Positions 1 through 427 of a stretch of 427 nucleotides of DNA are shown here, one piece after another. Under the pieces are notes generated by a model. That model saw nothing but the letters and a program-made list of their open reading frames with translations, did no database searches and was not told where the DNA came from. A program made the position numbers and the translations under genes. Numbering within the stretch: the first letter of the stretch is position 1; the number at the start of each line of letters is the position of its first letter. Origin of the DNA: Escherichia coli (GTDB lineage Bacteria; Pseudomonadota; Gammaproteobacteria; Enterobacterales; Enterobacteriaceae); assembly GCF_003334405.1 (NCBI RefSeq), contig NZ_QOWM01000065.1; one strand, written 5' to 3'.

Positions 1-81
1 ACCATCACCGTTAACGCTGCTGGTAACGCGGAAAACACCGTCAAAAACATCGCATTTAACTATATTGTGAGGCTTGCATAA
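1..81 (+). CDS. stf: 3' end of a side tail fibre protein gene (5'-truncated by the window edge). Frame 1 reads [26 protein letters not shown] then stop at 79..81.
   Basis: Frame 1 is open from position 1 to TAA at 79..81. The C-terminal peptide ending ...[11 protein letters not shown] matches, from memory, the end of lambdoid side tail fibre proteins. A tail fibre assembly gene follows immediately downstream, which is the conserved stf-tfa order. The gene is absent from the ORF track only because it has no start inside the window. Confidence 0.8.
66..71 (+). promoter_or_regulatory. Shine-Dalgarno / ribosome-binding site for tfa (GTGAGG), located inside the last codons of the upstream tail fibre gene
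   Basis: The purine-rich GAGG core at 68..71 is 9 nt upstream of the ATG at 81, within the usual spacing for E. coli-type initiation. Called from sequence only. Confidence 0.55.
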
Positions 82-427
82 TGGCATTCAGAATGAGTGA
101 ACAACCACGGACCATAAAAATTTATAATCTGCTGGCCGGAACTAATGAATTTATTGGTGAAGGTGATGCATATATTCCGCCTCATACAGGTCTGCCAGCA
201 AACAGTACCGATATTGCACCGCCAGATATTCCGGCAGGCTTCGTGGCTGTTTTCAACAGTGATGAGGCATCGTGGCATCTCGTTGAAGATCATCGGGGTA
301 AAACGGTTTATGACGTAGCGTCAGGGGACGCGTTATTTATTTCTGAACTCGGTCCGTTACCGGAAAATGTTACCTGGTTATCGCCGGAAGGGGAGTTTCA
401 GAAGTGGAACGGCACAGCCTGGGTGAA
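81..427 (+). CDS. tfa: 5' part of a tail fibre assembly protein gene (3'-truncated; last complete codon ends at 425). N-terminal 115 aa: [115 protein letters not shown]
   Basis: ATG at 81..83 opens a frame with no stop to the window end. The N-terminus [51 protein letters not shown]... is recognisable from memory as the lambda Tfa family (lambda Tfa and the TfaE/TfaR/TfaQ-type paralogues of E. coli K-12 cryptic prophages). GAGG at 68..71 lies 9 nt upstream of the ATG. The gene is absent from the ORF track because its stop lies beyond the window. Confidence 0.9.

Follow-up and report, generated by a model that had tools for sequence, protein, structure and literature searches.

Gene content and identity of the window

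The window analysed here, the whole 427-nucleotide (nt) stretch of Escherichia coli DNA (contig NZ_QOWM01000065.1), holds the end of stf, the side tail fibre gene of lambdoid phages, and the beginning of tfa, the gene of the tail fibre assembly protein. We interpret it as the place where the two final genes of a lambda-type tail operon meet, the operon most likely belonging to a lambdoid prophage of E. coli (probability about 0.9). The features that make up this junction are:

1..81, plus strand: 3' end of stf, the last 26 codons and the TAA stop at 79-81, from the frame-1 translation; matching records are all annotated as tail fibre protein
67..72, plus strand: Shine-Dalgarno-like GTGAGG (GAGG at 69-72), 8 nt before the tfa ATG and within the stf coding sequence, read from the sequence
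79..83, plus strand: TAATG stop/start overlap of stf and tfa, in which TAA (79-81) and ATG (81-83) share 1 nt
81..427, plus strand: first 115 of the 193 codons of tfa, which encode the beta-rich N-terminal domain of Tfa, translated from the ATG at 81 with the frame open to the window end

The initial annotation had called this DNA a lambdoid stf-tfa junction, and the call was confirmed by the translation, the database matches, the tail-operon context, the PHROG and Pfam profiles and the homology to gp37 of phage T4. Megablast returned matches at E=0 in 42 phage records, annotated as pairs of tail fiber protein and tail fiber assembly protein, and matches in 4441 of 5426 complete E. coli genomes (2 places per genome at the median, 7 at most), always under a fibre/assembly gene pair; the match of the window to stf/tfa pairs is far beyond chance. 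Three E. coli chromosomes were 100% identical to the window, while the K-12 prophages Qin (stfQ/tfaQ) and Rac (stfR/tfaR) reached 98.6% and 98.4%, respectively, and phage lambda 95.8%. The window carries the lambda-type stf/tfa pair and is closest to the Rac/Qin alleles. All phage records stayed below 100%, the lambdoid phages 2H10, ev099 and mEp460 matching at 98.6-98.8%.

The full-length Tfa has 193 amino acids, 95% of them identical in lambda Tfa, and matched PHROG 105 ("tail fiber assembly"; E=1.8e-100, residues 1-192) and Pfam Caudo_TAP (PF02413; E=1.4e-44, residues 72-192). Both profiles matched by this open reading frame (ORF) are phage tail fibre assembly families, in line with the initial annotation, while an NCBIfam scan of Tfa and Stf found no family at E<=0.001. 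Moreover, tfa lies directly downstream of the fibre gene, as is the case for members of the Tfa family.

Both junction signals were conserved in the detailed comparison, which comprised 14 copies, more than 8000 places existing in E. coli genomes. The GTGAGG at 67-72 was invariant in all 14, lambda and P1-like phages included, and its GAGG may act as the ribosome-binding site of tfa. Likewise, the TAATG overlap was constant in the 14 copies, and the annotated gene limits in lambda, Rac, JL22, P2_4A7b and 9g give an identical 1-nt overlap; stf and tfa are probably coupled in translation through it.

Prophage context and origin of the copy

The three chromosomes with 100% identity provided the exact-match loci L001, L002 (OkiPb01694) and L003 (GF43). 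In each of them the window lies at the end of a lambdoid tail operon with the order H-M-L-K-I-J-lom-stf-tfa, H being the tape measure gene, and stf is full length, with 3.1-3.4 kb (1023-1133 codons). The phage tail genes expected in the flanks were accordingly present around all three exact matches (J-lom-stf-tfa operon), and the same gene order was found in L014-L017 and L019. The element of OkiPb01694 extends over about 40 kb between tRNA-Arg (argU)/intD and tfa and includes the repressor, Q, lysis, terminase, head and tail genes. Beyond ompT (L002, about 17775), attR is marked by a second copy of the tRNA 3' end, at least 40 nt long, and this prophage looks like a complete relative of DLP12. 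Additionally, six more copies at 99.5% identity or above lie in prophages at other sites (ssrA, bioA-ybhB, yodB, ompT), one of them in a degraded remnant.

Two other origins of the copy were weighed against this context. A decayed cryptic remnant such as Qin or the NWU_3 fragment, whose genes would be relics acting only as a recombination reservoir, is an unlikely source of the window. Such copies exist: Qin (98.6%) has a truncated stfQ beside nohA, NWU_3 carries an stf fragment beside a partial nohD, known remnant copies are 98.6-99.5% identical to the window, and cryptic remnants donate DNA to incoming phages (PMC3945230). However, all three 100% matches have a full-length stf after a complete H-M-L-K-I-J-lom series, the OkiPb01694 element, read end to end, retains integrase, repressor, Q, lysis, terminase and head genes, and the mostly synonymous changes indicate purifying selection. 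A free temperate phage genome or phage-plasmid, instead of a chromosomal prophage, is quite improbable as the source. The lambdoid phages 2H10, ev099 and mEp460 come close, and plasmid-labelled records match at up to 99.3%, but 100% is reached by three chromosomes and by no phage record. Besides, several of the PLSDB "plasmid" records with the cassette measure 0.7-4.9 Mb (hits H181, H186 and H188) and are probably chromosomes or chromosome fragments labelled as plasmids, and a free phage and a prophage are biologically the same element in different states.

Two further records carry lambda-like DNA. "Campylobacter phage CJLB-4" (MW057783.1, 48,361 bp) has 95.8% identity to the window, the same as lambda, at near-lambda coordinates, and a 48,502-bp "Salmonella enterica plasmid" (NZ_CP082339.1), also at 95.8%, has exactly the length of the lambda genome. 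Both look like lambda DNA, control or contaminant, under other names.

Downstream of tfa, the OkiPb01694 and GF43 loci carry Mn catalase, YciE/F-like genes, a methyltransferase and ompT. Directly 3' of tfa is a four-gene cluster (L002 12782-14995, also in L001 and L003, and L015 5782-7995) that encodes the Mn catalase, two ferritin-like YciE/YciF proteins and a con-10/YciG-like general stress protein. It lies inside the prophage, given the attR beyond ompT, and travels as prophage cargo, since a prophage at the bioA-ybhB (att-lambda) site has it too, at 98.8% identity. The ssrA-site prophages fill the same slot after tfa with defence-type cargo (L014 and L016, 5735-9591): genes for a GIY-YIG (LEM-3-like) nuclease, a Dcm-type methyltransferase and a type II restriction endonuclease.

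Mosaic structure of the locus

Sliding identity and the alignment of the 14 copies delimited a conserved block that begins some 60 nt before the window and reaches about position 640, roughly 20 nt short of the tfa stop at 662. The window lies within this block and was 92.7-100% identical in every copy. Immediately upstream, a hypervariable patch of 190 nt (-250 to -60), corresponding to the tip insert of stf, fell into six mutually unrelated types (25-54% "identity") among the 14 copies, and the three genomes with the 100% identical window have three different tip types. Beyond about 640 nt, the homology to lambda, Rac and Qin ends and the cargo differs between prophages. The locus is therefore mosaic, but its variability resides in the flanks, and the window is a constant scaffold together with the N-domain of the chaperone.

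The tip types were incongruent with the tfa alleles. The tip patch of GF43 is 99% identical to that of Qin and the patch of STEC17-183 100% identical to that of Rac, although the tfa 3' parts of these two genomes are only 92% identical to those of Qin and Rac, which demonstrates that the patch has been exchanged independently of tfa. The description of the locus as mosaic and prone to recombination thus holds, given the six tip types beside a 92.7-100% identical window, a test of the pairwise homoplasy index (PHI) type on the conserved block (p=0.001) and the measured crossovers: homologous recombination of lambda with Rac and Qin across stf and tfa has been measured, and the tfa region, which is 95% identical, accounted for a third of the junctions between lambda and Rac (PMC3945230). 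The accompanying statement that the fibre C-terminus and its chaperone are exchanged as a unit is not true of recent exchanges among these prophages, in which the tip patch was swapped independently of tfa.

A 1.46-kb query against E. coli genomes produced many partial matches with recurrent end points, some covering the C-terminal part of tfa only and some only internal tfa sequence. In the phage collection, distant matches ended at 1-427, 14-235, 1-209, 7-98, 80-427 or exactly 1-81, the last of these in T-even gene 37. The matches at nt 7-98 come from virulent siphoviruses of the Nonagvirus group (9g 1501-1592 in locus L012; JenK1; HdSG1), at about 80% identity; they cover the fibre end and the first tfa codons only, with the 1-nt gene overlap retained.

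Relation to DNA-invertase systems

The initial annotation had left open that the unit could sit inside an invertible segment, having noted that the window shows no invertase and no crossover site, and the latter statement holds. We consider it very improbable that the window copy lies inside a segment controlled by a DNA invertase of the Cin, Pin, Gin or Min type, in which inversion would alternate two tips and their chaperones. Every 100% match is a lambdoid prophage tail operon. In the OkiPb01694 and GF43 loci, tblastn with PinE was negative for the 12 kb to each side, and the inverted-repeat search returned only pairs of 19-23 nt with 76-79% complementarity, bracketing nothing sensible. Downstream of tfa in the exact-match loci there is no opposed alternative fibre tip with a second tfa, the Mn catalase and other genes lying there instead, and no recombinase is annotated within 5 kb in the six further copies at 99.5% identity or above. 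In all, the nine near-identical copies sampled were without a surrounding invertase-controlled segment.

Some arrangements do favour an invertible segment. In locus L001, a gene for a Pin homologue (76% identical to PinE) lies 2 kb beyond the lambdoid tfa; however, this invertase and the 244-nt inverted repeats found there (14782-15025 and 16588-16831) belong to an adjacent P2/Mu-like myovirus prophage, and the window (12001-12427) lies outside them. In Rac and Qin, the serine recombinase genes pinR (L005 10085-10675) and pinQ (L007 3623-4213) follow tfa after about 100 bp on the opposite strand, with products 38% identical to PinE, but no inverted repeats bracket tfaR and the fibre genes of Rac, so that a role of pinR in an invertible segment was rejected. 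The P1-like phage JL22 (locus L009) served as a positive control, in which a 92.7% copy of the junction lies between 602-nt, 99% complementary inverted repeats and adjoins inverted S and U genes and cin; this copy is inside the Cin-invertible C segment. Consequently, the invertible-segment option stands for the JL22 relative and fails for the exact-match contexts, which have neither an invertase nor bracketing repeats. The Pin-invertible cassette of e14 was also considered as a relative and rejected, its DNA having no match to the window and its TfaE only 34% protein identity. The P1 C, e14 P (Pin) and Mu G (Gin) segments combine an invertase, inverted repeats and an opposed cassette, whereas the contexts of the window are without all three.

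Several side observations concern these elements. The myovirus prophage of L001 (14146-24427) is inserted into a YciF-like cargo gene and has its own Pin-like invertase and opposed fibre/tfa genes, and its fibre end (16352-16397) is an inverted, 46-nt, 78% match to nt 46-91 of the window. In both Rac and Qin, the fibre genes are without bracketing inverted repeats despite the nearby pinR and pinQ. In the P1-like phages of L009 (7703-8179) and L008 (7703-8275), the lambda-type tfa is separated from the inverted U gene by a serine O-acetyltransferase gene, sacF, which in JL22 is thereby inside the Cin-invertible segment. In the P1-like Ro157c2YLVW, S', most of U' and cin are lost, and the segment appears frozen.

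Comparison with lambda and other tail fibre systems

Phage lambda has the same gene pair, stf (orf-401/orf-314) and tfa (orf-194), in the same order after J-lom and with the same TAATG. Compared with lambda, the exact-match loci have an unrelated tip insert (40-44% identity) and a longer stf, and the similarity in DNA ends about 20 nt short of the tfa stop. Within the window, the 18 nt differences from lambda comprise 15 synonymous and 3 non-synonymous changes; the tfa frame has 13 synonymous and 3 non-synonymous ones, and all three of the latter are in Tfa. This pattern, dominated by synonymous changes, indicates purifying selection. Two groups of differences can be located:

369..397, plus strand: amino acid differences from lambda Tfa at nt 369 (V97, F in lambda), 388 (E103, G in lambda) and 397 (F106, Y in lambda), from the alignment
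317..326, plus strand: four consecutive synonymous third-position differences (codons V A S G), GTA GCG TCA GGG in the window and GTG GCT TCC GGC in lambda, Rac, Qin and Ro157

The differences from lambda Tfa that the initial annotation had suspected near residues 97-105 are real, their exact positions being 97, 103 and 106 in the flagged stretch. The allele of the window at these residues occurs in 13 of the 14 copies, Rac, Qin and the P1-like JL22 included, and only lambda has ENFTWLSPGGEYQ, lambda being the outlier allele. The patch at 317-326 distinguishes the allele group to which the window belongs (9 of 14 copies), with JL22 intermediate, and may be a short conversion tract or clustered mutation.

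In Rac and Qin, Tfa residues 95-107 are identical to those of the window. STEC17-183 combines the window allele with the Rac tip type and GF43 combines it with that of Qin, whereas the Rac and Qin loci differ from the exact-match loci in the tfa 3' part (92%) and in having pinR or pinQ after tfa in place of the Mn-catalase/YciEF cluster. In the T-even phages, gene 37 matches nt 1-81 at 75-79% nucleotide identity and shares the HxH repeats, but the similarity in DNA ends precisely where the fibre gene does. Genes 37 and 38 do not overlap but are 26 nt apart, and gene 38 matched nothing in the window at the DNA level. As reported by Montag et al. (1989; cited in PMC3945230 and PMC9659904), lambda Tfa can stand in for gp38. 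The P2-like Peduovirus P24A7b has tail fibre genes with 74% identity across the junction, and in the Punavirus JL22 the stf-3'/tfa junction forms one arm of the P1 C segment (S/U, Cin), which confirms transfer of the cassette between the tails of siphoviruses and myoviruses.

Apart from stf and tfa, the window contains only short ORFs, the longest being on the minus strand (60..293, 77 amino acids). This antisense ORF was rejected as a chance ORF, because a stop codon interrupts it in both Rac and Qin and most changes in its frame are non-synonymous. No Rfam match was found in the window at E<=1, and a promoter and terminator scan of the window gave one of each, the same level as in shuffled sequence.

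Structure and proposed mechanism

The C-terminal 165 residues of Stf aligned with the tip structure of T4 gp37 (2XGF, gp37 862-1026) at E=1.2e-53. The segment encoded in the window aligned to gp37 1001-1026, and its 26 residues match the C-terminus of gp37 of the T-even phage TuIa at 24 positions. The last 17 Stf residues are identical in T4 gp37 (2XGF) and TuIa gp37, forming a conserved end motif that closes the fibre gene. The collar domain D10 of gp37 includes the return strand 1010-1026 (domain limits from PMC6957217). Nt 1-81 encode the extreme C-terminus of the trimeric fibre and, because they align to gp37 1001-1026 with this collar strand, by homology a strand returning from the receptor-binding tip to the collar, not the residues that contact the receptor. 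Further upstream, outside the window, HxH repeats flank the variable tip insert in stf of the exact-match loci, and the variable patch aligns to the distal-tip region of gp37 between its HxH motifs, at which iron sites have been described (PMC6957217). Side fibres of Ur-lambda bind OmpC and are structurally homologous to gp37 (PMC12617516).

The AlphaFold model of Tfa (predicted local distance difference test, pLDDT, of 86) has strands at residues 10-116 and two helices within 118-175 (118-152 and 158-175), and the PHROG and partial E. coli matches of Tfa split near residues 105-125, fitting two modules. Residues 127-192 match Mu Tfa (5YVQ) at E=1e-9 in the helical part only, so that the C-terminal helical domain and the two-domain layout are common to both proteins while the window does not include the part that matches. 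For the N-domain encoded in the window, no sequence or fold match to Mu Tfa or any solved structure was obtained. According to a summary of North et al. (2019) in PMC9608196, members of the Tfa family have a variable fibre-binding N-domain and a conserved, trimerising C-domain.

Nt 81-427 encode the N-domain of Tfa, which by analogy with this family would be a chaperone that folds and trimerises the fibre tip, its translation probably coupled to that of stf through the TAATG. Host specificity would be set by the variable insert between the HxH (metal-binding) repeats, 60-250 nt upstream of the window. Such inserts are swapped between prophages, most likely through homologous recombination in the conserved sequence to either side, the window being the right-hand conserved flank. 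This copy is most likely not under DNA-invertase control, and one Tfa allele would serve, and hence tolerate, several unrelated tips.

The Tfa proteins of the compared copies differ by 0-2 amino acids over the 115 residues encoded in the window, beside at least four unrelated tip inserts. Because nearly identical Tfa proteins stand beside these unrelated tips, the lambda-type N-domain may recognise the invariant return strand of Stf (nt 1-81 and the preceding HxH repeats) and not the tip itself, acting as a universal chaperone that permits free tip swaps. We put this forward tentatively and with less than even confidence, together with the possibility that its fold has no solved relative and differs from that of the Mu Tfa N-domain.

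Some points weigh against the interpretation given here. The context was read from three different genomes with 100% identity, and the window's own source could be another one. The detailed comparison is limited to 14 copies among the more than 8000 E. coli places, and recombination inside the 427 nt was not significant (PHI-like p=0.45; maximum chi-square against lambda p=0.12), no breakpoint within the window being claimed. That the N-domain recognises the conserved C-terminal strand instead of the tip is only inferred, and the chaperone mechanism would be carried over from Mu on family grounds and through the C-domain only, the N-domain having no solved structural relative.

Implications for lambdoid tail fibres

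The stf-tfa pair, its homology to gp37/gp38, its spread in lambdoid, P2-like and P1-like phages and its recombination with the cryptic prophages of K-12 are already in the literature. The present analysis adds modest refinements, namely that the window is a conserved flank, that the tip inserts move independently of tfa and that this allele occurs without an invertase context. The resulting map of constant and variable parts, with the tip insert 60-250 nt upstream of the window, the conserved block and the variable cargo after tfa, helps the annotation and engineering of these loci. Moreover, the occurrence of one Tfa allele with several tips is useful for the design of chimeric lambda side fibres in delivery vectors.
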